From the IMG/VR virus record IMGVR_UViG_2627853771_000003: a stretch of 48,551 bases of DNA; one strand, written 5' to 3'. The translations under genes and the position numbers were made by a program. The DNA is from a virus (lineage: Duplodnaviria > Heunggongvirae > Uroviricota > Caudoviricetes). The notes under the pieces are model-generated. The model did not search any database and was not told the DNA's origin. It was given only the letters and a program-made list of their open reading frames with translations. Below, piece after piece: positions 1-38,348 of the stretch (the stretch's first letter is position 1; the number at the start of each line of letters is the position of its first letter).

Positions 1-500
1 GTAATTATTTACAGTTACAGCCGATCTCCCTGGTTGTGTAACAATATAGTTACTTTTGGGGATCTGGTATCCAGTCAGTAGCTCTTTACGAACCTCCAGT
101 AATTTTTCTTTATTAATCGATGAGGCAAGATTTTTTTCACCGATTATGCTCAGGATATTTTTGATGACGGCACGGTATGTGTTGAGTGATGTTTTTGCGA
201 CTTCAGTTTCTTTCAGTGCCAGAAATTTTTCAGCCAGTTCTTTTATGGTTAAATCTTGTCGGGCCTCACCAAATTTTTCCAGATTGCGTGAGGAGGGAAA
301 CTGTTTTGCATAGTCGAAAACACCAGTTTTTATTGCGTAACAAACAGAGGCGCGTAGCTCACCTGCAACGGCCTGTTTTTTGCTGTGTCAGGAACCCCCA
401 GGTTTTCCCTGACTCTTACGCCTTTATAAACAAACCAGATACGTAATTTCCCTCCATGGTTTTCCACGCCTGTCGGATATTTCATTTCAACTTCTCTCAT
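1..500 (-). pseudogene. phage integrase, N-terminal part (runs off left edge), apparently frameshifted
   Basis: Minus-strand ATG at 500 or 485 gives MREVEMKYPTGVENHGGKLRIWFVYKGVRVRENLGVPDTAKNR then a stop. A second frame is open from about 380 to position 1 (AGELRASVCYAIKTGVFDYAKQF...VTQPGRSAVTVNNY) and has no Met. The frame switch maps to an A6 run (T6 on + strand, 376-381). Lies downstream of xis on the same strand. Confidence 0.5.
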
Positions 501-519
501 TAGTTAGTGTGGCTTTTAG

Positions 520-771
520 TCAAGTAAGATGACGTCTTGGTCTTGCTGATGCCTGGCGCTCAATCCAGCGATCAATTTCTTCCAGGTTGTAAAAGCATGG
601 ACTGTTATCCCATGGCATACCGTCATGAGCGACATGCTTATATTCCCTTCCTTCCATAAACGATTTTTCCCGGGCCTTTTTTAACGTACCTTTTTTTATT
701 CCTTTCAGCGCAATTAACTGCTCTTCGGATACCCATTTGCCGGGAGAGACAATCATGATTACTTCGCTCAT
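520..771 (-). CDS. excisionase-like DNA-binding protein
   Basis: 83-aa ORF between integrase and exonuclease on the same strand; contains a GREY motif as in lambda Xis (KDGREYLF). Confidence 0.55.
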   Translation of the reverse strand: MSEVIMIVSPGKWVSEEQLIALKGIKKGTLKKAREKSFMEGREYKHVAHDGMPWDNSPCFYNLEEIDRWIERQASARPRRHLT

Positions 772-843
772 CGATTTCTTTATCTCTTACATCAGACGAG
801 CGCCGGTTGCAGAATACCAGTCACAACCGGCGACAGTTGAACA

Positions 844-3315
844 TTAAGAATCAGCCTGACTCGGGATCAGTTTTTGCCAGATAGCTGAAACGTATTTTGC
901 CTGGTAACGGGCGTCATCAAGTGCATTATGGCGCTCACCTTCGAATGGAATAGCCGTTCTGGCATCGAAGTCTATGGCTTTCCCCAGCTCAACGATTGTG
1001 CGTACATCGCGATCGTTGTAGTAACGCCACGGGCAGGGGATCCCCTGCCGTTCGTATGAACGGCGCAAAATCGTGTTGTCGAAGTTGGCTCCATTTCCCC
1101 AAACCTGAACAAAAAATTCACCGGAGTTTTCGTCGATAAATTCCCGCAATTGTAACAGTGCATCATCTAACGGGATTTCATCGGTCATAATGGCAGATTG
1201 CGCTTCGCGTGATTGCTTAAGCCACCATTTAATGGTGTCCCGATCAATGACTCCGCCAGCAGTTTCCAGATCGATAGTCTTACTAAATTCCGGTCCCATA
1301 TCTCCGGTTTGCGGATCGAAAAATATTGCACCTATTGAGATGATCGGGGCATCAGGATTTTTTCCCATGGTTTCAAGGTCGATCATTAGATGGTCACACG
1401 TCCTGCTGGTGGATGTGATTTCGTGATGACCGTTCACCTTAATTGGGTGATCTGCCGTCTCGCCAGTTTCATTATCGCTATTGTGATGCTGATTGCCGCC
1501 AGTGTTCTCCTTGTGTGGATGTTCAGCGCCTTCCATTTCCTCCGGATCATCTTCCTGAACTTCAACCTGATACTCTTCATCGAATGTTTCTTGGTATGTT
1601 GCGTCGCCCATCACCGCGCCACAATCAGGGCAGTTGCCGCCGCCGGTCTGACCGCAGGCGGTGCAGACTTTTTCCACTTCCTGTTGCGCCACTGGTTCAG
1701 GCTGTTTCGTTTCTGGCTCGTTTTGTAACGCATTTGGACTGTTTTGTTCCGCTTTTTGGTAGTTCCGTTCCGATTCATGCTGGTTCTGGTTCACAGAATC
1801 GCGGGTCTGGATCCCCTTAACCCATTTCGGATCATTCGGGTCACTAATCCCTTCAACAAATTCACCACGTGATGCAGCAAGCAACTTATCGGCGTCAGGC
1901 TGGCTGATATTGGCTGCCTGCATAATTTTGTTTACTTCGTCAGCGGTAACTTTTATCGGCTCTGGTTGTTCTGAATCTTCAGCGGTATCTACATTTTGCG
2001 GTAAGCCCGTGTATGTGCCATTTTTTCGGGCAAAATATTCTTCTTTTGTGATTTCAGTGGCGCCAGCAGCCAGTGCCTTATCCAGACCAGAAAGTTTGTT
2101 TGCGCGACCGTATTTTTCTCCGTCCTTATCTGCGAAGAGGAAATAGAACGGCCCCTCACGCTCTACAGATGGTTCAGCTTCCGGCGCGGTTTCATTTTTT
2201 GGGATATCAGATACCTCAGTTTCCACTGCATCAGTTTGTGTTTCTGATGACTGGAGAACATCAACAGTGCTCAGGTCTGTTTCTTCATTCTCAAACACGC
2301 CCTTTGTCGTCAGGTATTCGCAGATATATTTGTTCAGTGCTACGGGATCTTTGTGAATGTCGATCGGACGCTCACGGACAAGGCCAAAAATAGTCTGGCG
2401 GTCGTAGCGAAGGGCATCAGGCTGTTTGCGCATTGATGCCGAGATACGCTTCCAGTCTTCGCGGTCGTTGTCGATAACTTCTTTTTTTGCCCAGCGATGG
2501 ATGCTGCCGTCAATGTTTCCGGCATCCACATCACCAGGCCAGAGAGCGTAGGCCAGTTCGTCATCCAGTGTTTTCCATGTCTGCTTGTATTCGCGATGAA
2601 TGGCAGCAATGACCGGGCTGATTTTTCCTGTTGAATTTTCAGTGTACTGTTGATTGGCTCTGGCGCGGGCGAGATCAACAACAGACGTGTATTTTCCGGT
2701 TTCCTTGCGTTCACCTTCGCGACGTTTTTTCCAGATGCGCATCTCTGCCTGAATTTCGGGCCATTTAGCACCAGGAATACATTTATGCTTAACCCACCCA
2801 ATGGCGTGCAACTTAAGCTCCGGATACATGGCGTTAACTTCTGGCATTTTCATCAACGCTTCAACGATATGTCCGTCGAATGTTGCCATGTCTTCCTGCA
2901 ACAATTCCTGTGCGCTAATAACCATATCAACGGTGATGTTTTCACATGTGTCGAACTTAACCATGACAGCGTTCTGTACTTCAGGGGCCAGCTTGTCAAA
3001 AGTGACGTTCATCGGATCGGATTCAGTCTCAACCGGGCCAAAAGAAGCAGACTCCTCATCCCAGCGGTTTTCCTGCATATATTCAGCATCCCATGAATCG
3101 AGGGCAGGGCGGGGTATGCCAGGTTTATCCTCGCAGACAATAAATTTATAAGCGCAGTCCTGAGCAGCCGGATAATGTTCCAGGAACTGCCAGTGAAATT
3201 TTGCTCGAGCACGGCGTTCGTCGCCAGCTTCAATGGCTGTGGCTACAGCCACAGCGCCTTCTTCCCTTGTTGCCAGTTCGTCAGGAATAGCGGCGCAAAT
3301 AAAGACTTTACTCAT
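844..3315 (-). CDS. RecE-like exodeoxyribonuclease with C-terminal DnaQ/DEDDh-type 3'-5' exonuclease motifs
   Basis: 823-aa ORF with an SD (GAGG) before the ATG. The middle region (KLLAASRGEFVEGISDPNDPKWVKGIQTRD; CTACGQTGGGNCPDCGAVMGDATYQETFDEE) matches what I recall of RecE. The C-terminus carries DLETMG, WGNGANFDNTIL and HNALDDA, the three DEDDh exonuclease motifs. Confidence 0.8.
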   Translation of the reverse strand: MSKVFICAAIPDELATREEGAVAVATAIEAGDERRARAKFHWQFLEHYPAAQDCAYKFIVCEDKPGIPRPALDSWDAEYMQENRWDEESASFGPVETESDPMNVTFDKLAPEVQNAVMVKFDTCENITVDMVISAQELLQEDMATFDGHIVEALMKMPEVNAMYPELKLHAIGWVKHKCIPGAKWPEIQAEMRIWKKRREGERKETGKYTSVVDLARARANQQYTENSTGKISPVIAAIHREYKQTWKTLDDELAYALWPGDVDAGNIDGSIHRWAKKEVIDNDREDWKRISASMRKQPDALRYDRQTIFGLVRERPIDIHKDPVALNKYICEYLTTKGVFENEETDLSTVDVLQSSETQTDAVETEVSDIPKNETAPEAEPSVEREGPFYFLFADKDGEKYGRANKLSGLDKALAAGATEITKEEYFARKNGTYTGLPQNVDTAEDSEQPEPIKVTADEVNKIMQAANISQPDADKLLAASRGEFVEGISDPNDPKWVKGIQTRDSVNQNQHESERNYQKAEQNSPNALQNEPETKQPEPVAQQEVEKVCTACGQTGGGNCPDCGAVMGDATYQETFDEEYQVEVQEDDPEEMEGAEHPHKENTGGNQHHNSDNETGETADHPIKVNGHHEITSTSRTCDHLMIDLETMGKNPDAPIISIGAIFFDPQTGDMGPEFSKTIDLETAGGVIDRDTIKWWLKQSREAQSAIMTDEIPLDDALLQLREFIDENSGEFFVQVWGNGANFDNTILRRSYERQGIPCPWRYYNDRDVRTIVELGKAIDFDARTAIPFEGERHNALDDARYQAKYVSAIWQKLIPSQADS

Positions 3316-3408
3316 TTTGTTTTAACCTCATGACAGATTTAAGGATGAACAAATCCCTGCCATTGCTGGCATATAAGAATGAAACCGGATATTTATTACG
3401 GAACTGTT

Positions 3409-3475
3409 TTAAAGACCTGCCGGGATTTCGATATTATCCTGGTGAATAACTTTATCGACCGGGTAACAGTTACCG
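3409..3475 (-). pseudogene. ydfD: ydfD 3' fragment (last 20 codons plus stop), separated from its 5' part by IS2
   Basis: Removing IS2 and one copy of the TSD joins 4936..4807 to 3475..3409 in frame, giving a 63-aa protein MNSAFVLVLTVFLVSGEPVDIAVSAHRTMQECMTAATEQKIPG|NCYPVDKVIHQDNIEIPAGL. Confidence 0.6.
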
Positions 3476-3486
3476 TGGATTTGCCC

Positions 3487-4392
3487 CTATATTTCCAGAC
3501 ACCTGTTATCACTTAACCCATTACTGGCCTGCTGCCGCAGATATTCCCGTGGCGAGCGATAACCCAGTGCACTATGCGGGTGCCATTCGTTATAATGCTC
3601 GAACGCCTCTGCAAGGTTCTTTGCTGCCGTTAACCCGTCTGGTTTAGGCATGATACTGATGTAGTCACGCTTTATCGTTTTCACGAAGCTCTCTGCTATG
3701 CCGTTACTCTCCGGACTCCGCACCGCCGTGTTCTTCGGTTCAAGCCCTAATATCCGGGCAAACTGCCGTGTTTCATTAGCCCGGTAGCATGAACCATTAT
3801 CCGTCAGCCACTCTACTGGAGACGCCGGAAGCTCGTTGCCGAAGCGGCGTTCCACCGCTCCCAGCATGACGTCCTGTACTGTTTCACTGTCGAAGCCGCC
3901 CGTAGTGACTGCCCAGTGCAGTGCCTCACGGTCACAGCAGTCCAGCGCGAACGTGACTCGCAGTTTTTCTCCGTTATCACAGCGGAACTCGAACCCGTCA
4001 GAGCACCATCGTTGATTGCTTTCTTTCACGGCCACTTTGCCAGTATGTGCCCGTTTCGATGGCGGTACAGCGGTTTTTCGCTCAAGCAACAGCGCATTCT
4101 GGCGCATGATCCGGTAAACACGTTTGGCATTGATCGCAGGCATACCATCAAGTTCGGCCTGTCTGCGAAGCAGCGCCCATACCCGACGATAACCATACGT
4201 GGGCAGCTCTCCGATAACATGGTGTATACGGAGAAGCACATCCGTATCATCTGAGTGACGGCTGCGGCGACCATCTTTCCAGTCATCGGTTCGTCTGAGA
4301 ATTACGTGCAACTGCGCACGCGACACCCGGAGACAACGGCTGACTAAGCTTACTCCCCATCCCCGGGCAATAAGGGCGCGTGCGCTATCCAC
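3487..4392 (-). CDS. insD: IS2 transposase OrfB (InsD)
   Basis: 301-aa ORF with a DDE-type integrase core, recognised as IS2 InsD. Confidence 0.9.
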
Positions 4393-4715
4393 TTTTTTGC
4401 ACGCCCGTATTCAACGGCTTCTTTAAGGAGTTCATTTTCCATCGTTTTTTTGCCGAGCAGGCGCTGGAGTTCTTTAATCTGCTTCATGGCAGCAGCAAGT
4501 TCAGAGGCAGGAACGACCTGCTCTCCTGCGGCCACAGCAGTAAGACTTCCCTCCTGGTATTGCTTGCGCCAGAGAAATAACTGGCTGGCTGCCACACCGT
4601 GTTGCCGGGCAACAAGGGAGACCGTCATTCCCGGTTCAAAACTCTGCTGAACAATAGCGATCTTTTCCTGTGTAGTACGCCGTCTGCGTTTCTCCGGTCC
4701 TAAGACATCAATCAT
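4350..4715 (-). CDS. insC: IS2 OrfA (InsC), HTH protein
   Basis: [26 protein letters not shown]...; overlaps insD in the -1 frame as expected for programmed frameshifting. Confidence 0.85.
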
Positions 4716-4806
4716 CTGCTCTCCAATGACTAGTCTAAAAACTAGTATTAAGACTATCACTTATTTAAGTGATATTGGTTGTCTGGAGATTCATGGGGCC
4801 AGTCTA

Positions 4807-4936
4807 TACCGGGAATTTTCTGTTCGGTTGCTGCAGTCATACACTCCTGCATTGTCCTGTGCGCACTGACTGCAATATCAACTGGCTCTCCGGAAACAAG
4901 AAAAACTGTCAGAACAAGCACAAATGCTGAATTCAT
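4807..4936 (-). pseudogene. ydfD: ydfD 5' fragment (first 43 codons), interrupted by IS2
   Basis: Its ATG overlaps the dicB stop (ATGA). The reading frame runs into the IS2 end, where it picks up 16 foreign codons ([16 protein letters not shown]) and a stop. Confidence 0.6.
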
Positions 4937-5121
4937 TGTGCACATCCTTTTGGCATCAGACGTAAACGAGCCAGCATTGAAACAATGCATATTTTATTTA
5001 ATAGCTCCCGTTCTTGTTTTCTCTTGTTAATGGCATCTTCAGTAAATACTGGGTTACTGATAGTGACACCAATTTCAAAACAACCTTCAGACGTATTAAC
5101 GTTTGGTAATAACGTTTTCAT
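4933..5121 (-). CDS. dicB: cell-division inhibitor DicB
   Basis: 62-aa product MKTLLPNVNTSEGCFEIGVTISNPVFTEDAINKRKQERELLNKICIVSMLARLRLMPKGCAQ; SD GAGGA 7 nt upstream; lies just downstream of the dicF-like sequence. Confidence 0.75.
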   Translation of the reverse strand: MKTLLPNVNTSEGCFEIGVTISNPVFTEDAINKRKQERELLNKICIVSMLARLRLMPKGCAQ

Positions 5122-5290
5122 TATCGCGTCCTCAACAATGAATTTTGTGATGCAGTGCCTGGTGCCTCCAGGTGACGTTAACCAGTTAACAATTAACGCC
5201 GGATACAGAGAATCCACCCATAACACTGTTTTTGGTTTTAACTGTTCCGCGTGCGCTCAGCCGCATTCACCACATCACAAAATTCACTTT

Positions 5291-5348
5291 AAAAAGGGCG
5301 GCAGAGCAGTCACGGAGTAAAACTGATACCGCCAAACGTCACCAGAAA
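5291..5348 (-). ncRNA. dicF: DicF-like small RNA (ftsZ-targeting sRNA of the dicB operon)
   Basis: Minus-strand sequence TTTCTGGTGACGTTTGGCGGTATCAGTTTTACTCCGTGACTGCTCTGCCGCCCTTTTT, with a GGCGG...CCGCC stem followed by a U-run; sits between the ydfC-like and dicB genes with no protein-coding capacity. Confidence 0.6.
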
Positions 5349-5688
5349 ATTGATAACAGAGGGCGTTGCAGCGGGGTTGTCACTTAAGCGTATGGTCAAC
5401 CTGACAACCCGGTGTCCTCAACGGGGAAGGAATAACCCCGCCATACTTACCGCCGCGCCATTTCGCGGGTTGCCACAACCGGAAGCGCACGGTCGACGAA
5501 AATTTAACGACAGGCTATCTATGAACCAGCTACCTCGCCGTGCGCTTTCGCGTTATGGTCTGACTTTTCAGGGAAATATCCTTTCAGTAAACTGTCAGTG
5601 CCGGATGCTCACCCGTGTCCGGCGCACGCACTCCACCTCACCCGTGGAGAATTCCTTAATTACTAACCTTAGCTTTGTTGATTAGCTA

Positions 5689-5907
5689 CTAACGCGGGTA
5701 TGTAATCATTCTGGCAATGCTTAATGCCGCTGCTTTTTCCAGATTGGTGATATCCTGCTCCAGAGCGGACAGATTTTCAGCCTGCTTAGCCCTGGCTTCA
5801 TTAGCCCATTTCAGATCCTGCGCTGCATTAATTTTCTGGCGCATCCACTCATAAAGTTCATCATCGGTATAGTCTGGCGCGATGATGACGGGTTCTCGTT
5901 TCTGCAC
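5689..5907 (-). CDS. ydfC: small dicB-operon protein (YdfC-like by size and position)
   Basis: 72-aa ORF with GTG start preceded by GAGGA; position in the operon matches ydfC. Confidence 0.5.
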   Translation of the reverse strand: MQKREPVIIAPDYTDDELYEWMRQKINAAQDLKWANEARAKQAENLSALEQDITNLEKAAALSIARMITYPR

Positions 5908-5936
5908 GCTGATTCCTCGCGGTGCTGTTTCGCTTA

Positions 5937-6065
5937 TCAGCCGTTAGATTTTGCCGAACTGGAAAGCGCCTGTTTAAATTCGCTGAAGCTGAGAGCTTCT
6001 TCGCCTTCGGCAAGGCCTTCGAAGTATTCTTCGTAAGCCTTTTCCATGATTGTGTCGAAATCCAT
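5937..6065 (-). CDS. ydfB: small acidic dicB-operon protein (YdfB-like by size and position)
   Basis: 42 codons, MDFDTIMEKAYEEYFEGLAEGEEALSFSEFKQALSSSAKSNG; SD GGTGGG; start lies 1 nt after the upstream gene's stop. Below the 60-aa track cut-off. Confidence 0.45.
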   Translation of the reverse strand: MDFDTIMEKAYEEYFEGLAEGEEALSFSEFKQALSSSAKSNG

Positions 6066-6066
6066 A

Positions 6067-6222
6067 TCACCCACCTGAATTTCTTTCCAGCCAGCGACGC
6101 GCTCCAGATTCGGTTTTAAACGTTTTGCTTTTGGTATACGTCATTGCGGTGAAGGTGCCGTCCTGGTTGGGAAACACGCCGTACACCAGAGATTCGTTGT
6201 TGCCAAGATCGATAGTATCCAT
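6067..6222 (-). CDS. ydfA: small dicB-operon protein (YdfA-like by size and position)
   Basis: 51 codons from the internal ATG (MDTIDLGNNESLVYGVFPNQDGTF...), with SD AAGGGGA/GAGGT upstream; first gene downstream of the repressor on the same strand. Confidence 0.5.
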   Translation of the reverse strand: MDTIDLGNNESLVYGVFPNQDGTFTAMTYTKSKTFKTESGARRWLERNSGG

Positions 6223-6519
6223 GCTGACCTCATTTCCCCTTAACGCCGGGGTAGCGGAACAAAAACCTGCTGCATAGTTATTAAAGTTGAACCCTGCCGT
6301 CATGTTCTTACGCCTCGGGCTGGCTACTTAACCCCTGACCACTGCCTGGTAACTCGAAGTATTGCCCTGCATTCTGTGGGGCGGGGTGGGTGGCAGGTAT
6401 ATAATGTACTTTGCGTTCATTGTTGTAAAGTACTTTTAGTACATTTTGTGTGTAAAAAAATGAGATGGGATAAAGTGAAGCACAAACCCGGAGGAAGGCG
6501 CTACCGGATTTATGCTGGT

Positions 6520-6939
6520 TTAAGAGGCTTTTTGTTTTTTCTTTCGTGCTAACTCTTCGTAAATTGCATTGTACTTCTGTTTTTTCTCTTCAAGAGTTTT
6601 TAAAAGTTCATCTGTCTCACTGTCAGGGAGCTCGTCCAGAAGGTCAATGATGATTTTTTGTCTTGGATTTAACTCCTGATAGAAACGTACCTGTCCACTT
6701 TCTTCTGTATCCTCTCCCAAAAGATAGGTTGGTGTTGTTCCTATTAGTGTTGCTAATTCCCTTAATTTCTCCCGGCGAGGAATTGTTTCGCCATTAAACC
6801 ATTTGCTAACCGCTTTTGGTGTTAATTTCATTCGACGGGCAATTTCTGCCTGCCTTCCATGTTGTTCATAACCAGCGTTTTCACAGGCTAGCGCAAGCCT
6901 ACTGGCGAACTCTTTACGCGCTTTATCTTCATGAACCAT
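6520..6939 (-). CDS. DicA/RacR-like HTH (XRE-family) prophage repressor, no peptidase S24 domain
   Basis: 139 aa with an N-terminal HTH (GRQAEIARRMKLTPKAVSKWFNG) and an acidic C-terminal tail; divergent from the cro-like gene. Confidence 0.75.
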   Translation of the reverse strand: MVHEDKARKEFASRLALACENAGYEQHGRQAEIARRMKLTPKAVSKWFNGETIPRREKLRELATLIGTTPTYLLGEDTEESGQVRFYQELNPRQKIIIDLLDELPDSETDELLKTLEEKKQKYNAIYEELARKKKQKAS

Positions 6940-7018
6940 AAGTTCAATGATATTCGCTCTTGAATGTACTGTCAGTTCTGTTATAGCATGTACTCAAAGT
7001 TCACACTGTGAGGGTGAT
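6940..7018. promoter_or_regulatory. divergent repressor/cro control region with candidate operator repeats
   Basis: 79-bp intergenic region between divergent HTH genes; two 16-bp direct repeats ATGTACTnnnAGTTC-like (about 6963-6978 and 6987-7002). Confidence 0.4.
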
Positions 7019-7273
7019 ATGAACCAGAAAACACTTGAAGATGTAATCAAAACTGTTCGCGTTGCTGTTGTGGCCGACGTTTGTGGTGTCAGCCAAAGAG
7101 CAATCTATAAATGGATGGATAACGGAAAATTGCCTCGCACAGAATATACCGGCGAAACAAATTACGCTGAAAAAATCGCTCTTGCATCAAACGGATTATT
7201 TTCTGCCGATGCAATTTTAACTATTGGCAGGAATAAAACTACTACGAAAAAGCTGATGGGAGTTGATTCATGA
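7019..7273 (+). CDS. Cro/DicC/YdaS-like HTH regulator
   Basis: ATG at 7019 preceded by GAGGG; product MNQKTLEDVIKTVRVAVVADVCGVSQRAIYKWMDNGKLPR... Confidence 0.7.
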   Translation: MNQKTLEDVIKTVRVAVVADVCGVSQRAIYKWMDNGKLPRTEYTGETNYAEKIALASNGLFSADAILTIGRNKTTTKKLMGVDS

Positions 7274-7695
7274 AAATCAAGCATGAACACATCCGCATGG
7301 CGATGAATGCCTGGGCGCATCCGGACGGCGAAAAAGTACCGGCTGCGAAAATTACCAAAGCGTATTTCGAGCTGGGAATGACGTTCCCGGAACTGTATGA
7401 CGACAACCATCCGGAAGCCCTGGCTCGCAATACTCAGAAAATTTTCCGCTGGGTGGAGAAAGACACCCCTGATGCGGTTAAAAAAATTCAGGCGTTGTTA
7501 CCAGCTATCGAAAAAGCAATGCCACCTCTGCTGGTGGCCCGAATGCGCAGTCATAGCTCAGCATATTTTCGGGAACTAGTGGAGACGCGGGAACGACTGG
7601 TGAGAGACGCTGATGATTTTGTCGCAGTGGCGATCGCTGGTTTCAACCAGATGAATCGTGGTGGCCCTGCAGGAAATATTGTGGCTGTGCATTGA
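7270..7695 (+). CDS. YdaT/CII-like early regulatory protein
   Basis: 141 aa starting MKIKHEHI, overlapping the cro-like stop; position equivalent to cII/ydaT. Confidence 0.6.
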   Translation: MKIKHEHIRMAMNAWAHPDGEKVPAAKITKAYFELGMTFPELYDDNHPEALARNTQKIFRWVEKDTPDAVKKIQALLPAIEKAMPPLLVARMRSHSSAYFRELVETRERLVRDADDFVAVAIAGFNQMNRGGPAGNIVAVH

Positions 7696-7766
7696 CTCGC
7701 AATATTCATACCGGATCACTTCCGGCAATTTGTGAGTAAAAAGATTCGGTATCAAAAGAGGTGAGT

Positions 7767-8837
7767 ATGGCTAACGCCTGGCTCAGATTATGGCATGACA
7801 TGCCAAATGACCCTAAGTGGCGAACAATTGCCAGGGTGTCAGGGCAGCCAATTGCAACAGTGATGGCAGTGTATATCCACCTCCTGGTGAGCGCGTCACG
7901 AAATGTCACGCGAGGTCACATTGATGTCACGACAGAAGATTTGGCAAGTGCGCTCGACGTGACAGAAGAGGTAATTGATTCAATTTTGCAGACGATGCAG
8001 GGGCGGGTACTTGATGGTGATTTAATCACTGGATGGGAAAAACGCCAGGTGCTTAAAGAGGACAACGGCAATATTTCGCAAACCGCAAAATCTCCGGCAG
8101 AGCGCAAGAGGGCGCAGCGAGAGAGGGAAAGAAAGCGGGAACAAAATGGCGATTGTCACGGCGCGTCACGAAATGTCACGCACATGTCACGACGAGTCAC
8201 GACAGATAAAGATACAGATAAAGATACAGATCAAGAAGATCAAAACACTATGGTCCATGGCGTAAAAAACGCCACGAACCAGGCAGGGGATGTTCAGACC
8301 GTCAATCCTGGTCAGCCAGCAGGCACGACACCGGAAGCCGATTCAGCGTATGCGCTGAAAGCCGATTCGGGCGCTGTGCAGCAGGTGATGACCCCAAGGC
8401 CGGAGCAATCACACCAACTGCAGCAGCCTGAAGCCGATTCCGCCATTCAGCGGGAAGCCGATCGGGTAGTCCCGGAAAACACCGGGCTGTCTGTGGGACG
8501 AGTGGATTATCCGGATGTGTTCGAACAGGTCTGGCGGGAGTACCCGTTGCGTGCCGGAGCAAACCCGAAGAAATCCGCTTTCAGTGCCTGGAAGGCCAGA
8601 TTACGCGAGGGGGTGCCACCAGAGGACATGCTGGATGGCGTGAGGCGTTACGCAAGATACTTGGCGGCTACCGGGAAAACGGGAACGGAATTTGTTCAGC
8701 GAGCGACGACGTTTTTTGGACCGGACCGGAATTTTGAGAACCCCTGGTTGCTCCCGGTAAGCGGCACGAACAACCAGCGTTGTGTGAATCATATTTCTGA
8801 ACCGGATAACGAAATTCCGCCGGGCTTCAGGGGGTAA
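7767..8837 (+). CDS. replication initiation protein (lambda O-like / YdaU-type), iterons inside the gene
   Basis: ATG at 7767 with SD AAGAGG; N-terminus MANAWLRLWHDMPNDPKWR; internal DKDTDKDTD linker; two GTCACG iteron arrays lie in the coding sequence. Confidence 0.65.
   Translation: MANAWLRLWHDMPNDPKWRTIARVSGQPIATVMAVYIHLLVSASRNVTRGHIDVTTEDLASALDVTEEVIDSILQTMQGRVLDGDLITGWEKRQVLKEDNGNISQTAKSPAERKRAQRERERKREQNGDCHGASRNVTHMSRRVTTDKDTDKDTDQEDQNTMVHGVKNATNQAGDVQTVNPGQPAGTTPEADSAYALKADSGAVQQVMTPRPEQSHQLQQPEADSAIQREADRVVPENTGLSVGRVDYPDVFEQVWREYPLRAGANPKKSAFSAWKARLREGVPPEDMLDGVRRYARYLAATGKTGTEFVQRATTFFGPDRNFENPWLLPVSGTNNQRCVNHISEPDNEIPPGFRG
7891..7931 (+). repeat. iteron array A: four GTCAC(G/A) repeats at about 10-bp spacing
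   Basis: GTCACG at 7895 and 7905, GTCACA at 7915, GTCACG at 7926; the 20-mer GCGCGTCACGAAATGTCACG is repeated exactly at 8161. Confidence 0.55.
8151..8246 (+). promoter_or_regulatory. candidate replication origin: five GTCACG iterons followed by an A-rich tandem repeat
   Basis: GTCACG at 8155, 8165, 8175, 8186 and 8196 (one helical turn apart), then GATAAAGATACAGATAAAGATACAGATCAAGAAGATCAAAAC. Confidence 0.5.
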
Positions 8838-8877
8838 GTGTTAATTTCTGGTCATGAGGTAATTTTCAGGAGGACTT

Positions 8878-9303
8878 GTGGCAAAAGTTTTTACACAAGA
8901 AGAGCGGGAAAAAATTAAAGGGCAGGTTGTTGAACTCGTACGCCAGAGTGGGCGCGAGACGTTACGACAACTGGAAACTAAAACTGGGGCAACAAGATAT
9001 CTGATGAGTGTTCTGGCCAGAGAGCTGGTTGCCAGTGGCGATGTATACAACTCTGGTTACGGGTTATTCCCGTCTGAACAGGCGCGTAAGGACTGGCAAA
9101 ATGCCCGTAAAAAGCTCTCAAGGGCAAAGCTGAAGAAACCATCTGCGGTTGATCCGGACCTTATCTGGTCATTACCTGACGGAGAAATACGTCGCTACGA
9201 TAGTTGTCTAAACATAATCTGTCGCGAGTGCCGGAAGAGCGAAGTTATGCAGCGCATTCTGGCATTTTATCAGGGAAATGTTAGGTATTTTAGACGTTAC
9301 TAG
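8878..9303 (+). CDS. hypothetical protein, probable winged-helix DNA-binding domain
   Basis: 141 aa, GTG start with SD AGGAGGA; follows the O-like gene where a helicase loader would be expected but is too small and unlike DnaC/P. Confidence 0.5.
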   Translation: MAKVFTQEEREKIKGQVVELVRQSGRETLRQLETKTGATRYLMSVLARELVASGDVYNSGYGLFPSEQARKDWQNARKKLSRAKLKKPSAVDPDLIWSLPDGEIRRYDSCLNIICRECRKSEVMQRILAFYQGNVRYFRRY

Positions 9304-9530
9304 ATTAAAGGGCATTAGTTCAGATATGCATTGACATTTTCATGGCACAAGGTAGAGCTAGCGTGGTTGTTCGCTTTGTGCCAAGAGTGGTCATTGATAA
9401 TATTTTGGTGGGTTACATCTGTCAATGTTTCAGGTGATATGATATACAAATAGCCAGACTTAGACTGGCATGCTGTTTATTTTTATATTATGGGTGTGCC
9501 ACATGGATTTAAAACTTATTGAGATATGAC

Positions 9531-10556
9531 ATGGATACTTTTCATAATATTTTGCTTGAGCACATAGACAGCCTTTTAAAAGAGAGACTTGATTTATCTG
9601 GTGACGCTGATATCGAAAAAGAAATTAATAACCTAATTCCCAAAATAGCCATTGTCGTTAAAAAATCTCTTATTGGCTCGGCCAATGCAATGCTTAGAGA
9701 ACATCGTTCTCTTTGTGATGAATTTGTTGAGAGAAATATTTCAAGATGGGCAGAGGCTTTTGATTTGCTCGAAACACTTATAGTGATATGCACGGAGTCC
9801 GGTGAAGAGTTCAATCGTTCTTATAGACCACAAGCTGCCTCTGAAGAGGATGTGGTTTTTGATTTAGTCGTTCGGCATCACGCAAGAGCTTGCCACATCG
9901 CCAACGAAATTTTGTGTCTCTTAAAGAATGGATTTGCAGATGCTGCCCAAGCGAGATGGCGAGCACTTCATGAGGTAGCGGCCACAGCTATGTTTATAGC
10001 AAAGCATGGAAAAGAGTGTGCTGAGCGCTTTTACTACCATGAAGTGGTTGATTCATATACTGGAATGTTGGAACACAAAAAGTACGAGCACCGGTTAGAA
10101 GCAAAAGGTCCAACTATTGAAGAAATAGCTGAGTGTAAAGTTCAATTTGATCTATTAATAAAAAAATATGGCAAAAAATATGCAGATAATTATGGCTGGG
10201 CATCTTATATTTTCCCTAACCATAATAAAGTGGGGTTTGGAGCTATTGAGAAAGATGTTCAGTTAGAACACATGCGCCCTTATTATAAGTGGGCGAGTCA
10301 GAATGTACACACCGGTTCCAAGGCAATGAGAAATAGGCTTGGTCTCTGTGAAACTGGTGATGATATATTATTGGTCGGGCAAAGTGATTCAGGAATGGCT
10401 GAACCAGCCCATGCTACTGCTATTAGTTTGATGCAGATTACTGTGACACTTTTATTTTTAAAACCAACCATTGATCATGCCGTCATTTCAAAAATAATAC
10501 AGGATTATTCTGATGAGATTGGAAATGTATTTCTTAAAATTGATAAGGGTAATTAA
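9531..10556 (+). CDS. orphan protein of unknown function in an AT-rich island (candidate accessory/defence gene)
   Basis: 341 aa from the first ATG (the track ORF begins at a TTG at 9519). AT-rich coding sequence flanked by AT-rich non-coding DNA; no family recognised; contains RHHARACH (R-x6-H). Confidence 0.6.
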   Translation: MDTFHNILLEHIDSLLKERLDLSGDADIEKEINNLIPKIAIVVKKSLIGSANAMLREHRSLCDEFVERNISRWAEAFDLLETLIVICTESGEEFNRSYRPQAASEEDVVFDLVVRHHARACHIANEILCLLKNGFADAAQARWRALHEVAATAMFIAKHGKECAERFYYHEVVDSYTGMLEHKKYEHRLEAKGPTIEEIAECKVQFDLLIKKYGKKYADNYGWASYIFPNHNKVGFGAIEKDVQLEHMRPYYKWASQNVHTGSKAMRNRLGLCETGDDILLVGQSDSGMAEPAHATAISLMQITVTLLFLKPTIDHAVISKIIQDYSDEIGNVFLKIDKGN

Positions 10557-10842
10557 AAATTGGAAAAGTGATAGTATATTCTTGTTTTTTTTACTGGTAA
10601 TTAAATGTTTTTAAAGTTACTAGTTCACACCTATCGAACGTCCGGTCTTCGCCCAAAGCGGACTAGAAGGTTAGCTTGCGTCGGACTTGGCGTATTTAAA
10701 GAAGTGCTGGTGGTGACTGGTTGTTGTGTTCCATTTCTACAGAACAAAATCACAGAAACTATACCCAATAGTTATATTGAATCAATGATGAGACAGCCTC
10801 ATATTTATCAGGACTGGTGTACGTCCAATACAGGAGGTTGTC

Positions 10843-10932
10843 GTGCTGGTTCTCAAATGTGCGCTAGCTATTGCGGCTGTAATGGCAATTTATTGTCTTG
10901 CTGTTGTTCTTACGGATCGCCTTTCTGATTGA
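10843..10932 (+). CDS. candidate small hydrophobic peptide (29 aa), type I toxin-like
   Basis: GTG start 5 nt after AGGAGG; product MLVLKCALAIAAVMAIYCLAVVLTDRLSD (single TM helix plus charged tail). Not in the track (under 60 aa); overlaps the implausible 107-aa track ORF in another frame. Confidence 0.35.
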   Translation: MLVLKCALAIAAVMAIYCLAVVLTDRLSD

Positions 10933-11143
10933 TTTTATATTGGCGAGGTGACGGGAGTTAAGTAGAATTGCTGCGGGTGCTTGAGGCTATCTGCCTCAGG
11001 CATGAACACCAAAGGCAGATAGAGAAAAGCCCCAGTTAACATTACGCGTCCTGCAAGACGTTTAACATTAATCTGAGGCTCAATCTATGAACGGCAAATC
11101 TAGGTTAGCCTCTTGCGTGCCGAAAGGCAAGGAGAAGCAGGCT

Positions 11144-11299
11144 ATGAAGCAGCAAAAGGCGATGTTAATCGCCCTGATCGTCATCTGTTTAACCGTCATA
11201 GTGACGGCACTGGTAACGAGGAAAGACCTCTGCGAGGTACGAATCCGAACCGGCCAGACGGAGGTCGCTGTCTTCACAGCTTACGAACCTGAGGAGTAA
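11144..11299 (+). CDS. hokD: Hok/Gef-family type I toxin (HokD/RelF-like)
   Basis: 51-aa product MKQQKAMLIALIVICLTVIVTALVTRKDLCEVRIRTGQTEVAVFTAYEPEE; an in-frame upstream ATG at 11087 gives a mok-like extension; terminator follows. Confidence 0.85.
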   Translation: MKQQKAMLIALIVICLTVIVTALVTRKDLCEVRIRTGQTEVAVFTAYEPEE

Positions 11300-11366
11300 G
11301 AGACCAGGCGGGGGAGAATCCCTCGCCACCTCTGATGTGTCAGGCATCCTCAACGCACCCGCACTT

Positions 11367-11393
11367 AACCCGCTTCGGCGGGTTTTGTTTTTT
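11367..11393 (+). terminator. rho-independent terminator after hok
   Basis: CCCGC-TTCG-GCGGG hairpin followed by TTTTGTTTTTT. Confidence 0.6.
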
Positions 11394-11465
11394 CCTGACA
11401 TTCTGGTTTACAATTCGCACGCCAGCCTGAACAACTGGCACCTGCTGCGCCAGCAGAGACAACCG

Positions 11466-11744
11466 ATGGCGCACGATACCAAATTACACAATTCTGATGA
11501 TTCTGCCGTCTTTGCCAGCAGGCACGGGCGGCGTTCCCGCACTTTCAAATCTGACTGGTTCCAGCATCCCCCATGCACTGAAGAACAGGCCGAGTGGCTA
11601 ATTCAGTGCTACCGCAGACACGGATACGAGATTAAGAAAGCCCTCAGCCTCGATTATCGTCACTGGATAATCTCCGTCAGGCTTCCTTACTCCGAACGCC
11701 CACCGCGTCCGTCCCGCACATTCCAGCAACGCATCTGGAGGTAA
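11466..11744 (+). CDS. hypothetical nin-region protein (92 aa)
   Basis: Only Met in the frame downstream of the hok terminator; its stop overlaps the start of the DUF968 gene. Confidence 0.45.
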   Translation: MAHDTKLHNSDDSAVFASRHGRRSRTFKSDWFQHPPCTEEQAEWLIQCYRRHGYEIKKALSLDYRHWIISVRLPYSERPPRPSRTFQQRIWR

Positions 11745-11745
11745 C

Positions 11746-12795
11746 GTGCGGATATTACTTCGACCTGTTCTGGTACCGGAACTCGGGCTGGTGATCGTTA
11801 AGCCGGGCCGTGAATCCATGCCGGTATTCCACAATACCCGGGTACTGGTGGAGCCGGAACCGAAAAGCATGCGTAATCTGCCGTCCGGGGTCGTTCCTGC
11901 CGTTCGCCAGCCGCTGGTGGAAGACAAAACATTGCTGCCGTTTTTCAGTAACGCACGGGTAATTCGTGCTGCTGGTGGTGCTGGTGCATTGTCTGACTGG
12001 CTGTTGCGCCATATTAAATCCTGCCAGTGGCCACACGGCGATTATCATCACAGCGAAACCGTTATTCACCGATATGGTACCGGCGCAATGGTGTTGTGCT
12101 GGCACTGCGACAACCAGCTGCGTGACCAGACATCCGAATCACTCGAGCAACTTGCTCATCAAAACCTGTCAGCATGGATGATTGACGTCATCGGTCACGC
12201 AATAAGCGGTACGCAGGAGCGTGAATTATCTCTGGCTGAATTATCCTGGTGGGCGGTCCGCAATCAGCTGGCGGACGCGCTACCGGAAGCGGTATTACGT
12301 CGCTCGCTGGGATTACCAGCGGAAAAAATCTGCTCGGTGTACCGCGAAAGCGACATCGTACCGGGAGAGCAGACCGCCACCAGCATATTGAAACAGCGCA
12401 CAAAAAATCTTGCACCGTTGCCTCACGCCCACCAGCAACAAAACCCATCACAGGAAAAGACGGTGGTAAGCATCACCGTTGATCCAGAGTCTCCGGAATC
12501 TTTCATGAAGCTGCCTAAACGTCACCGGTGGGTTAAGGAGAAATACACACGCTGGGTTAAGACACAGCCGTGTGCTTGCTGCGGTATGCCAGCCGACGAT
12601 CCGCATCATCTGATTGGTCACGGGCAGGGCGGAATGGGAACCAAAGCACATGATCTCTTTGTTTTGCCTTTGTGCAGAAAGCATCACGACGAGTTGCATA
12701 CGGATACCGTGGCATTTGAAGAGAAGTATGGCTCCCAACTGGAGCTGATTTTTCGATTTATCGATCGCGCGCTGGCAATTGGTGTGCTGGCCTAA
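11746..12795 (+). CDS. ydfU: YdfU-like DUF968 protein with C-terminal Cys/His (HNH-like) cluster
   Basis: 349 aa, GTG start after GGAGG; C-terminus [43 protein letters not shown]. Confidence 0.7.
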
Positions 12796-12812
12796 TTTTG
12801 TGGAGTAAGTTG

Positions 12813-13190
12813 ATGCGTGATATTCAGATGGTTCTTGAGCGTTGGGGGGCATGGGCGGCTAATAATCATGAAGATGTGACCTGGTCGTCCATTGCCGCCG
12901 GTTTTAAGGGATTAATTCCTTCAAAAGTAAGATCTCGTCCGCAATGCTGTGACGATGACGCGATGATCATTTGTGAATGTATGGCTCGCCTGAAAAAAAA
13001 CAACAGCGATTTACATGATTTATTGGTGGACTATTATGTCGGCGGCATGACTTTTATGGCGCTTGCACGTAAGCATGGGCGATCTGATTGTTGGGTTGGC
13101 AGGATGCTCCAGAAAGCTGAGGGCGTAGTGGAGGGCATGCTGATGGTGTTGGATCTCCGATTGGAGATGGATGCTGATTGTTCGAAATAA
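12813..13190 (+). CDS. late-gene antiterminator, Q-like (Phage_antitermQ type)
   Basis: [26 protein letters not shown]...; SD GGAGTAAG; position upstream of the late terminator and lysis genes. Confidence 0.65.
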
Positions 13191-13290
13191 TTAAAGGAAA
13201 AGTTGCTGTCTGATTTTCATTAGTCTAACATTTTAAATGTTGGAATCGCAACGTAGTTATTATCATATAACAGCTTGTTTCCTGATTTAG

Positions 13291-13317
13291 CCAGCCTCCC
13301 CAAAGGCTGGTTTTTTT
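13291..13317 (+). terminator. rho-independent terminator downstream of Q (tR'-like)
   Basis: CCAGCC-TCCCCAAA-GGCTGG hairpin followed by TTTTTTT. Confidence 0.6.
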
Positions 13318-13345
13318 CTAATAAGTATCATTTCGGGTGGGGATT

Positions 13346-13870
13346 TTATTGTTTAACCCATAATAGTTCATTGACATTGAATCCCAACTTTTGAGCGGTA
13401 CGCACATAGTCTGCTTTTACATTATCTGGAATAGTTTGGGTCCTTGCCAGAATCCATAGGTATTCTCTGTTCGGACCACTGACAAGAGCATACTTATACT
13501 CATCATCCAGTTTGATTACATTATAGCCACCATAGAAGGGGCCAAAAAACGAAACTTTCAACGCTGCAGTTTTAGTATCTCCAGTAAAGTATGCTTTACC
13601 TTCGCTCTCGCTCCATTTGTTTTTCGTTGGATCGTATCCACGGTTAAGTACGCGAATCCCTCCGTCGTTCCGTTTTTCATAAGTAGCGCTGACCTGTTCC
13701 AGACCACGTTCGAACCAGTTCTCGAGGCGAGCTATTTCATACCATTTTCCGAGGTAGCGGTTGGCGTCAAAATTTGTAATCGGCTGCACACCTTTAGGTG
13801 GTGTCGGGGCCTTACATGCTATAAGAGTGAAAGAGAGTGCAATGCCAGTCAACACAGGCCATAACTTCAT
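13346..13870 (-). CDS. Blc-like bacterial lipocalin, outer-membrane lipoprotein (moron)
   Basis: Signal peptide with lipobox LIAC; lipocalin motifs YLGKWYEIARLENWFERG and SFFGPFYGGYNVI; opposite strand to the phage late genes. Confidence 0.85.
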   Translation of the reverse strand: MKLWPVLTGIALSFTLIACKAPTPPKGVQPITNFDANRYLGKWYEIARLENWFERGLEQVSATYEKRNDGGIRVLNRGYDPTKNKWSESEGKAYFTGDTKTAALKVSFFGPFYGGYNVIKLDDEYKYALVSGPNREYLWILARTQTIPDNVKADYVRTAQKLGFNVNELLWVKQ

Positions 13871-14062
13871 AATAAATCCTGTACTTTTGATAGTTGAGAG
13901 TAAGTATGAAAGATAGATGAGTACGACCGATCACTTAAAGAACTTTCCTACTATATTAGGAATAGTCAATAACAGAAAAATTGTCAGTGATGAAGCCAGA
14001 AAGGCAATTTAGTCCGTGCACTACAAAGTTTATGTGTTAATGAATTAGTCAAGGGGGAGGAA

Positions 14063-14896
14063 ATGATAAAAAAACCTGTGATTGGGATCAGCGGTTGTTT
14101 GGGCGGTTCTGCTGTTCGTTTTGATGGTGGTCACAAAAGAGATGACTTTTTAATGGACAAATTAGTGGAATGGGTAACATTCAGACCAGTATGTCCGGAA
14201 ATGGCTATAGGGCTGCCAGTTCCGCGTCCTGCTCTACGACTTGTGCGCTCGAAGCAAGGAAATATACGGATGTGTTTCAGCCACGACCAGAATGAGGATG
14301 TGACAGAGAGAATGACAGAGTTTAGTCGTTCTTATATGGACAAATTAAAGGATGTATCGGGGTTTGTGGTTTGTGCTAAATCTCCCAGCTGTGGCATGGA
14401 GCGCGTGCGTGTCTATGATGAAAATGGTAATCGAGGTCGTAAAGATGGAGTGGGACTATTTACGAGCACTTTGATGGAAAAGTTTTCCTGGCTACCGGTT
14501 GAAGAGGATGGGCGATTACATGATCCAGTGCTTCGTGAGAATTTTATTGAAAGAGTTTTTGCTTTGCATGAGCTCAATCACCTTTACAAGGAGAAATTAT
14601 CAAGAAGAGAGTTATTAGCTTTTCATAGTCGTTATAAGCTTCAGTTGTTGGCGCATAGCCAGGCAGGCTATAAAGATATGGGACCATTTGTGGCTGCAAT
14701 ACACGAGTGGGCGGACCTTGAATCATACTTTGAGGTGTATCGTGATAATCTGATGGCGATTCTCAGAAAACCAGCATCACGTAAAAATCACACGAATGTG
14801 CTGATGCATATACAGGGGTATTTTAGTAATTACTTAAGTACACGCCAGCGTAAAGAGTTGAGCGAGGTTATACTTAACTTGATCCTACCCACGTAA
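14063..14896 (+). pseudogene. DUF523 (TudS-like, three-Cys cluster) + DUF1722 fusion protein gene, 3' end interrupted by IS3
   Basis: N-terminus MIKKPVIGISGCLGG with Cys12/Cys44/Cys105. The frame enters IS3 at 14880 and stops after 5 foreign codons. Removing IS3 and one TSD copy restores a 47-codon continuation ending at 16283. Confidence 0.7.
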
Positions 14897-14909
14897 TATG
14901 GACACAGGC

Positions 14910-15776
14910 CTAAGCGAGGTTCTTGTTTTCAAATTGTTCCGGACTGAGGCCGCCACACCAACTGTGCCGCCGCCACCGATTGTAATCACATTCGATATAA
15001 TTAAACACCGTTGCCCGCATTATTTCCCGGCTGATAAAGTGTTCTCCATGGATACATTCCACTTTCAGCGAATGAAAGAAGCTTTCCACGCAGGCATTAT
15101 CGTAGCAGCAACCTTTTGCGCTCATACTTCCACGCAGATTATGCCGCTTCAGTTGCGCCTGATAATCTGCTGAACAGTACTGGCCTCCACGGTCCGTGTG
15201 AACGATAACGTTCCGGGGCCTCTTACGCCGCCACAGCGCCATCTGCAGGGCATCGCAGGCCAGTTGCGCCGTCATGCGTGGCGACATTGACCAGCCAATA
15301 ACGGCACGTGACCACAGGTCAATGACCACTGCCAGATACAGCCAGCCTTCATCTGTACGTAAGTACGTGATGTCTCCTGCCCACTTCTGGTTCGGGCCAC
15401 TGGCGTAAAAATCCTGCTCCAACAGATTTTCTGACACAGGCAGGCCGTGTGCGCGGTAGCTGACCGGGCTGAACTTCCGGGAGGCCTTTGCCCTCAGCCC
15501 CTGACGGCGCAGGCTTGCCGCCACGGTTTTTACGTTAAAGGGGTAACCCTGAGCACGCAGTTCATCCGTCAGGCGTGGGGCACCGTAACGCTGTTTTGAC
15601 CGGGTAAAAGCCGCGAGGACAACGCTGTCGCAGTGTTGGCGGAACTGCTGACGCGTGCTTATCCTTGTCCGCCGCTGACACCACGTATACCAGCCGCTGC
15701 GGGCCACCCGGAGCACGCGGCACATTGCTTTGATGCTGAACTCAGCCTGATGTTTTTCAATAAAGACATACTTCAT
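14910..15776 (-). CDS. insF: IS3 transposase OrfB (InsF)
   Basis: 288-aa DDE integrase-core ORF inside IS3. Confidence 0.9.
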
Positions 15777-16081
15777 TTCAGGCGCTTCGCGAAGTATGTC
15801 GCGGCCTTTTGGAGGATAGCCAGCTCTTCATCCCGTTCTGCCAGCTGGCGTTTGAGACGTGCAATCTCGGTAGACATCTCCAGTTCACGTTCAGAAGACG
15901 TCTGCTGATTTTGCTGTTTACTGCGCCAGTTGTAGAGTTGTGATTCATACAGGCTGAGTTCACGGGCTGCGGCAGTAACACCGATGCGTTCAGCAAGCTT
16001 CAGGGCTTCACTGCGAAATTCAGGCGAATGCTGTTTACGGGGTTTTTTACTGGTTGATACTGTTTTTGTCATGTGAGTCAC
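15773..16081 (-). CDS. insE: IS3 OrfA (InsE), HTH/leucine-zipper protein
   Basis: 102-aa ORF overlapping orfB by 4 nt. Confidence 0.85.
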
Positions 16082-16137
16082 CTCTGACTGAGAGTTTACT
16101 CACTTAGCCGCGTGTCCACTATTGCTGGGTAAGATCA

Positions 16138-16283
16138 ACTATCGCTTTGGCACATTGCCTCTTCTTGCGCCGTTGACTCTGCTGAAGCATTATCTGGGTG
16201 AGTATCCTAATGATTACTTGCTTACACAGAATTACTTCGATCCCTATCCGGAAGAACTGGCTCTAAGACTGATGGTGAATTAA
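16138..16283 (+). pseudogene. 3' fragment of the DUF523/DUF1722 gene displaced by IS3
   Basis: In-frame continuation ...YRFGTLPLLAPLTLLKHYLGEYPNDYLLTQNYFDPYPEELALRLMVN* once IS3 is removed. Confidence 0.6.
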
Positions 16284-16689
16284 CTGTATGCGATATCATC
16301 TGAAAGTGATGAGTTCCTGTATGCAGGATATTTACAATCGTAAAAACTACGCTATGATGCTCATAGTGTCAGTTTTTATAAAAATCCTGTTCACGCTAAA
16401 GAAAACATTGAGATGCAATTTAATGTTGGTAAACATACCAGCCCCAAAAGATTTTATTCAATCTGTTTTTATATGAAGATATTTCAAGTGAATATAAAGA
16501 GCATATAATATTATTATTGCACGCAGCTATTATAATATAACAGATTAGTTTAATGATTTGTTTTTTGTGAGTTAAACACATGGTTTTATAGTTGTGATGC
16601 AATGAGATTTTCCTTATTGTTGAACTGGCGAATATTGATTTTCCACCTATACTTACCTGGTGTAACCCCAATGATATCAGGTGGATAAT

Positions 16690-31064: not shown

Positions 31065-31087
31065 ACGTCGCAGACAACAACTCTGAT

Positions 31088-31107
31088 GGCCCGTAAGGGC
31101 TTTTTTT
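31088..31107 (+). terminator. short rho-independent terminator after the capsid gene
   Basis: GCCC-GTAA-GGGC hairpin followed by TTTTTTT. Confidence 0.4.
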
Positions 31108-31150
31108 GTACCTGAAATCAGCCCCTGAACGGGGCTGTGCGGAGACAGTT

Positions 31151-31474
31151 ATGGCAAAGAATTTTGTAGAAGAAGGAAAAACGGTGGCGATTGTTGCCAG
31201 TGCAGCCATCAGCAGCGGAGATCTGGTGCAGGTGGGTGATGTTTTTGCGGTGGCGCTGACCGATATTCCACAGGGTGAAACAGGCGACGGCATGACCGAA
31301 GGTGTGTTTATGCTGCCTAAGCTGAAAACGGATGACATGAAAACGGGTAAGAAGGTTTATCTGAAGTCCGGAAAAGTTCAGCTGACTAACAGCGGCTCTG
31401 ATCCGCTGGTCGGGGTTGTCTGGGTAGATGCCGGAACCAGTGCAGAAGAAGTGCCGGTAAAACTCAATGTCTGA
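31151..31474 (+). CDS. small head-associated protein (DUF2190-like, possible decoration/connector protein)
   Basis: 108 aa, SD GGAG, immediately after the capsid gene. Confidence 0.55.
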   Translation: MAKNFVEEGKTVAIVASAAISSGDLVQVGDVFAVALTDIPQGETGDGMTEGVFMLPKLKTDDMKTGKKVYLKSGKVQLTNSGSDPLVGVVWVDAGTSAEEVPVKLNV

Positions 31475-31742
31475 TCCCTTTTCCCGGCTGGCAGCGCGTA
31501 TGGATGCGATCACGGTCAGAAAGATGGGAAAGACAGCCTCGATTAATGATGCCGATATGACTGTGATCCCGGGAGAAACACTGGCAGAGCTGAATGCTCT
31601 GTCCGGACCTGCGGTATCTCTGGTGGTGTTTTCTTCGGGATACCGCCCACGGCGCGGGGATCGCGTTGTTTATGACGGACAACAATGGACGGTCACACGG
31701 CATGAACGTTTTAACGGTAAGCCAATGATCTTTATTGAGTAA
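31467..31742 (+). CDS. head-tail attachment protein (FII-like)
   Basis: 91 aa, position between head and tail genes. Confidence 0.6.
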   Translation: MSDPFSRLAARMDAITVRKMGKTASINDADMTVIPGETLAELNALSGPAVSLVVFSSGYRPRRGDRVVYDGQQWTVTRHERFNGKPMIFIE

Positions 31743-31753
31743 AGAGGTGTGGG

Positions 31754-32332
31754 ATGAAGGGGCTTGAGAATGCCATCCGTAATCTGAACAGCCTTGATAC
31801 CCGTATGGTGCCACAGGCCAGCGCATGGGCGATAAACCGTGTGGCACAGAAAGCGGTCTCGGTCGCCACCCGGCAGGTTGCCGGGAATACCGTTGCGGGA
31901 GATAACCAGGTGAAAGGGATCCCCCTGAAACTGGTACGTCAGCGTGTCCGGGTGTTTAAAGCCAGTCCGTCAGGAAAAATGACGGCCAGGATCCGCGTTA
32001 ACCGGGGCAATCTGCCCGCTATTAAGCTGGGGACAGCCCGGGTCAGACTGGCCCGGCGTGGTGGAAAACTGCAGTACCGTGGCAGTGTGCTGAAGGTGGG
32101 TAAATATCTTTTCCGGGATGCGTTTATTCAGCAACTGGCGAATGGTCGCTGGCATGTGATGCGGCGTATTGATGGCAAAAATCGTTACCCCATTGATGTG
32201 GTGAAAATCCCTCTGTCCGGACCGCTGACGCAGGCATTTGAAGATGCCCGCGACCGCATCATTGCTGCGGAAATGCCGAAACAGCTGGGGTATGCACTGA
32301 AACAACAACTGAGGTTATGGCTGACCCGATGA
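31754..32332 (+). CDS. Z: minor tail protein Z
   Basis: 192 aa, lambda gene order. Confidence 0.8.
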   Translation: MKGLENAIRNLNSLDTRMVPQASAWAINRVAQKAVSVATRQVAGNTVAGDNQVKGIPLKLVRQRVRVFKASPSGKMTARIRVNRGNLPAIKLGTARVRLARRGGKLQYRGSVLKVGKYLFRDAFIQQLANGRWHVMRRIDGKNRYPIDVVKIPLSGPLTQAFEDARDRIIAAEMPKQLGYALKQQLRLWLTR

Positions 32333-32730: not shown

Positions 32731-32740
32731 GGAGGTGGCA

Positions 32741-33484: not shown

Positions 33485-33504
33485 CAGGACGATACTCATC
33501 ATTT

Positions 33505-33528
33505 GCCCCGGTTATTCGGGGCTTTTTT
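33505..33528 (+). terminator. rho-independent terminator after V
   Basis: GCCCCG-GTTATT-CGGGGC hairpin followed by TTTTTT. Confidence 0.6.
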
Positions 33529-33541
33529 ACAGGTGGAGAAC

Positions 33542-33931: not shown

Positions 33932-33939
33932 CGCGGGAA

Positions 33940-37635: not shown

Positions 37636-37644
37636 GAGGCTCTG

Positions 37645-38343: not shown

Positions 38344-38348
38344 ATCCC

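Follow-up and report, generated by a model that had tools for sequence, protein, structure and literature searches.

Organization of the prophage locus

The stretch of DNA analysed here (48,551 nucleotides, hereafter the window) begins inside an integrase gene. The 5′ part of this gene (1–485, minus strand; 485 nt) corresponds to Int residues 1–162 of 426 and lies in two reading frames, and the remainder is located past the left window edge. An intact excisionase gene, xis (520–771, minus strand), follows, with a DUF1233 domain (Pfam E-value 1.6e-31) and homologs annotated as excisionases, and next to it is an intact gene for an exonuclease of 823 amino acids (844–3315). The genes dicB (4936–5121), DicF (5296–5347) and sok/hokD (10975–11296) are intact, as are those for the holin EssD (17594–17809), the endolysin RrrQ (18687–19220) and the Rz protein RzpQ (19217–19714). 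Antiterminator Q, cspI, gnsB, and the head and tail genes are also intact, and pinQ is located at the right edge.

The order int-xis-exo-ydfD-dicB-DicF ... hokD ... essD-rrrQ-rzpQ-cspI ... pinQ is that of a Qin-type prophage, and by its sequence the window is identified as the left arm of a Qin-type (mEp460-like) lambdoid prophage of Escherichia coli. At about 48 kb, including head and tail genes, this prophage is close to full length. In relatives whose sequence equals that of the window ends, rspB stands beside int (loci L003 and L058) and pinQ-ydfK-ydfJ lies at the other end (L046). These relatives place the element between rspB and ydfJ, which is the Qin locus, and both attachment junctions lie outside the window.

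Three insertion sequences (IS) interrupt genes of the prophage. A complete IS2 of 1,331 bp (3476–4806) with the 5-bp duplication TACCG interrupts the lysis gene ydfD, of which a 59-residue N-terminal fragment remains. An IS3 of 1,258 bp (14880–16137) lies within a ybgA-like (DUF523/DUF1722) gene, which it splits, and is flanked by the 3-bp duplication ACT. The third is an IS66-family element of 2,532 bp with tnpA, tnpB, and tnpC (23216–25747, minus strand) and an 8-bp duplication (ACATTATG). It splits the large terminase gene terL (22736–27375), in which the GpA_ATPase domain is broken at profile positions 125/124; the disruption of the terminase by an IS had been anticipated from the DNA alone. 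The draft assembly GCA_030177415.1 appears to share the IS2, IS3 and IS66 insertions; its contig ends at the IS3 point, which suggests that this insertion is shared. The IS2 in ydfD is common to several draft assemblies, in which contigs break at this site, and is also present in one contig of 4.65 Mb (L058). The IS3 in the ybgA-like gene is absent from the close relatives L050–L057.

The integrase gene is split between two frames

The first frame of the integrase can start at ATG 500 (MREVEM...) or at ATG 485 (MKYPTG...), both on the minus strand. The latter is the RefSeq choice for homologs, including that of E. coli E24377A. Before the switch of frame there are 38–39 native integrase codons counted from ATG 485, or 43 from ATG 500. 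The first frame then runs from ...GVPDTAKNR into the out-of-frame sequence PLQVSYAPLFVTQ (12–13 codons) and ends at the stop codon TAA at 332–330. The resulting truncated ORF (330–485, minus strand) encodes 51 amino acids: 39 native residues, amounting to half of the arm-binding domain, and the 12 out-of-frame residues.

[quoted passage not shown] It reads ...VAGELRASVCYAIKTGVFDYAKQFP...SAVTVNNY and is free of stop codons from position 387 to base 1, as the original prediction had noted when it described this frame as open to the window edge. No ATG, GTG, or TTG codon is present in the second frame anywhere within the window. The first possible restart of translation is Met163, outside the window, and a product starting there would have neither the arm-binding domain nor the greater part of the core-binding domain.

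Both frames belong to one gene. A tblastn search with an intact homolog placed Int residues 1–38 at 485–372 and residues 35–162 at 384–1, in a different frame. On a translation repaired by one base, the arm-binding domain (PF12167, Arm-DNA-bind_2) was found at residues 9–72 with an E-value of 1.7e-21 and spans the junction; the base used for this repair was added to the A run, although the true lesion lies elsewhere. Without the repair, the domain breaks off roughly halfway along. The core-binding SAM-like domain (PF14659) scored 21.0 bits against a cut-off of 22.6 (E-value 4e-4). The catalytic domain (PF00589) is beyond the left window edge and is present in the relatives L002–L008, which have an identical 5′ part. 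This domain matches tyrosine recombinases in the PDB (for example 6emy, 4e-9). Because homology places both frames in the same integrase, by tblastn and by the Pfam domain across the junction, they are a split real gene, and a chance pair of ORFs is excluded. The switch of frame, predicted at 370–385, is thus real, and this interval contains the lesion.

The window holds no single uninterrupted integrase reading frame. Since the first frame yields only 51 residues and the core-binding and catalytic parts are without a start codon until Met163, the gene is, as judged from its sequence, a pseudogene with a 51-residue peptide carrying half of the arm-binding domain as its only predicted product. 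Homologs do not place the true start in the second frame: they begin with MKYPTG in the first frame, and the second frame is without a start codon.

A single G is missing beside the A6 run

When the window was aligned to the intact integrase gene from E. coli E24377A and to L003, a draft assembly that matches it apart from the deletion, the lesion mapped between positions 370 and 371 (minus strand), where the Arg40 codon CGC has lost its G. The intact coding strand reads AAAAAACAGGCGCGTTG, and the window reads AAAAAACAGGC-CGTTG. On the coding strand, AGG CGC GTT becomes AGG C-C GTT (GGCGCG becomes GGC-CG), and on the plus strand, cgCgcc becomes cggcc. No other difference from the intact homologs occurs in 142 nt, and none from L003 in 486 nt.

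The A6 run (376–381, minus strand; T6 on the plus strand) is equally long in the intact homologs. The deletion lies 5 nt past this run and not in a homopolymer, as it removes a lone G between two Cs. Homopolymer contraction was therefore rejected as the cause, and the frameshift is beside the run and outside it. The original prediction, which put the frameshift within the homopolymer, erred on this point, and its proposed check for a different run length that would restore one frame was aimed at the wrong base. A switch of frame near a homopolymer needs comparison with an intact relative before the run is blamed.

The surroundings of the lesion are GC-rich. Intact homologs carry a perfect inverted repeat of 7 bp, AGGCGCG N14 CGCGCCT, at the positions corresponding to 343–375 of the window (minus strand). 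It directly follows the heptamer A_AAA_AAC, and the deletion takes one base of its 5′ arm.

Distribution of the deletion allele

A 70-nt query with the deletion gave no exact match in 5,426 complete E. coli genomes; in the same search, the locus was present in 2,536 of these genomes, and 2,538 match the intact site. An intact 39-mer occurred exactly in 2,333 of them. No metagenome contig contained the exact 33-mer across the deletion, compared with 33 contigs for the intact 34-mer used as a control. Among species-representative genomes, neither the deletion 33-mer nor the intact 34-mer was found, so this collection is uninformative. The stretch was intact in all 42 retrieved loci that carry it.

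The exact truncated product was not found in Logan-derived gene calls or in the gene-position index. Among approximately 15 billion proteins, the exact 51-residue product has one entry, AKM35121.1, from one contig only, which is labeled "putative defective integrase; Qin prophage [E. coli PCN061]". The integrase defect is therefore already known, as the depositors of the probable source genome, PCN061, annotated it. The deletion is absent from all of the closest relatives, and the allele is a singleton.

Genuine mutation or assembly error

The most likely reading of the sequence comparisons is that the deletion is a genuine, private loss-of-function mutation, to which we assign a probability of roughly 0.65. 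The strongest competing explanation, clearly the less probable of the two, is that the missing base is an error of sequencing or assembly and that the actual strain has an intact integrase of 426 amino acids. The distribution of the allele is compatible with such an error, as it is unique to one assembly and the gene is unbroken in every near-identical relative. Three independent assemblies (L003, L005, and L008) match the window from position 1 to 3475–3867 with no mismatches and one gap, and each encodes a 426-residue Int.

Consensus errors of 454 sequencing are chiefly miscalls of homopolymer length. The genome of PCN061 was assembled in 2015 with Newbler from Roche 454 reads at 33x coverage and was closed by PCR and Sanger sequencing (PMC4578781), a provenance that lends the error some plausibility. 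In addition, the site lies in a GC-rich repeat that can form a hairpin, for which artefacts of base calling or consensus are conceivable. However, the loss of a lone G between two Cs is unlike the usual homopolymer miscalls of this platform, and the wild-type length of the A run with the lesion 5 nt away shifts the odds from a platform-typical error towards a real mutation.

The quality of the remaining sequence bears on the same question. We compared the window with its nearest relatives in four segments: 1–3867 with L003 (no mismatches, one gap, the integrase deletion), 4809–14879 with L054 (one mismatch, no gaps), 16137–22056 with L054, L055, and L057 (no mismatches or gaps), and 29698–48551 with L046 (no mismatches or gaps). 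In this total of 38,712 nt, there is one SNP, and the integrase deletion is the only indel. All 75 homopolymers of at least 6 nt in these segments are equal in length to those of the relatives, which speaks against an error; none deviates in 38.7 kb of the window. The reads used for gap closure are an unlikely origin as well, since the nearest IS or contig-joining region is 3 kb away. We thus favor a genuine mutation because the assembly is clean in homopolymers, in which errors of 454 sequencing tend to gather, and its one indel is not a miscalled run length.

Possible rescue by ribosomal frameshifting

A further explanation supposes that the gene still functions. The heptamer A_AAA_AAC is in frame at 381–375 (zero frame GC A_AAA_AAC), two codons upstream of the deletion, and a −1 slip on it leads straight into the open second frame. 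Ribosomes slipping in this way would produce full-length Int with R39Q and R40A substitutions, and a low level of integrase would be kept. The heptamer does have the X_XXY_YYZ form in the zero frame, and the shift enters an open downstream frame. In E. coli, A_AA.A_AA.C with no stimulators supports −1 frameshifting of more than 0.10%, and it is one of the motifs listed for IS1- and IS3-family elements (PMC4066793). Compensatory frameshifting at "savior" indels has also been documented elsewhere (PMC5009743).

We nevertheless consider the rescue very improbable. The motif is classed as of low efficiency in E. coli (PMC4066793). The hairpin starts 1 nt past the heptamer, instead of at a distance of 5–9 nt, and the deletion weakens it. 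Its folding does not surpass that of shuffled sequence (z = +1.30 for the window and −0.59 for the intact gene). Neither the heptamer nor the hairpin is conserved in the 62%-identical integrases of YYZ-2008 and BP-4795, which have GCC AAA AAC (C_AAA_AAC, not X_XXY_YYZ) and are without the hairpin, and in the integrase gene of PhiR42_1 one base of the 3′ stem arm is changed. Moreover, R39 and R40, which the slip would replace, are conserved basic positions (NRR or NRK) in the arm-binding domain.

With the heptamer and hairpin unconserved, there is no indication of a signal under selection. A programmed frameshift in the intact gene was likewise rejected, as the fold does not exceed that of shuffles and the elements are not conserved. 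The −1 frameshift of IS1 insA-insB′ uses an identical in-frame A_AAA_AAC, on which the slip fuses two frames, as it would here. In contrast to IS1, the heptamer in the window is unconserved and has no sign of selection, and its juxtaposition with the second frame comes from a deletion. In our view, the heptamer lies beside the deletion by coincidence and not by selection; it might permit traces of read-through, with only a slim chance that this matters. If slippage of about 0.1% did occur, the integrase would be leaky and not dead; residual excision at a very low level is then conceivable, if improbable.

Comparison with related integrases and other lesions

One close counterpart is intQ of the Qin cryptic prophage in E. 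coli K-12, which occupies the same rspB-ydfJ locus and is also a dead integrase gene; the neighborhood in the relatives of the window is rspA-rspB, int-xis-exo-ydfD-dicB-DicF ... pinQ-ydfK-ydfJ. The intQ type of naming (Qin, defective integrase) was also used by the depositors for the deletion allele. In K-12, an IS truncates intQ, and the greater part of the Qin prophage has been deleted. The window, by contrast, carries a prophage of almost full length whose integrase gene lacks a single base. The integrases encoded in four Escherichia phage genome records (mEp460_ev081, HannyBb, PhiR42_1, and Tritos) share 99.3% protein identity with the intact allele over all 426 residues. These mEp460-like temperate phages have the same int-xis-exo arrangement as the window. 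Their integrases are encoded in one frame, whereas the copy in the window is frameshifted after codon 39.

Other assemblies have IS66, IS3, and IS1 insertions in the same integrase gene. The integrase is often lost at this locus, by a variety of routes. The other frameshift alleles that we found (loci L068–L074, proteins P0032–P0043) are all in homopolymers: losses or gains of one base in A6, the run singled out in the original prediction, and changes in G5, A7, C4, and A5. An allele with A6 shortened to A5 (...DTAKTGALQV...) was present on several sequence backgrounds, in about 55 contigs and in four complete genomes of chicken isolates. The A6-to-A5 alleles affect the same gene and have the same truncated length of 51 residues as the product in the window. 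A homopolymer frameshift is thus the usual mechanism for this integrase, though not in the window, where the lesion is the only integrase frameshift seen outside a run. Some of the homopolymer alleles, found in long-read assemblies in which neighboring genes are also broken, may be sequencing errors.

Proposed history and retained genes

Taking the deletion as a genuine mutation, we propose that one G was lost inside the Arg40 codon of a lambda-type tyrosine integrase, which would leave only the 51-residue peptide. Int-dependent excision is expected to be lost, considering the broken integrase. The deletion would be a recent and private event on a prophage already crippled by IS in terL, ydfD, and the ybgA-like gene. 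The feature is ordinary prophage grounding and decay. It would represent one more route by which Qin-type prophages are fixed in the chromosome, with dicB/DicF, hokD/sok, the lysis cassette, and the cold-shock genes kept, and its significance extends little beyond annotation.

The original prediction had described a prophage that can no longer excise or package, yet still carries dicB/DicF, hok, holin, and endolysin genes. For packaging and the retained genes, this picture holds: terL is split, and dicB/DicF, hokD/sok, the holin gene and the endolysin gene are all retained intact. A failure to excise would be the expected consequence of the broken integrase.

Two RNA elements were also detected with Rfam: a full sok antitoxin RNA overlapping hokD (10975–11149, 109.6 bits) and a cspA-type thermoregulator 5′ UTR upstream of the prophage cspI (19920–20317, 109 bits). 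The slot between the DUF977 gene and hokD (9519–10556 in the window) contains a DUF5677 ORF. In L002, the same slot (919–3432) contains KwaA/KwaB of the Kiwa defence system and QueH, and this position may be a variable hotspot for defence or cargo genes.
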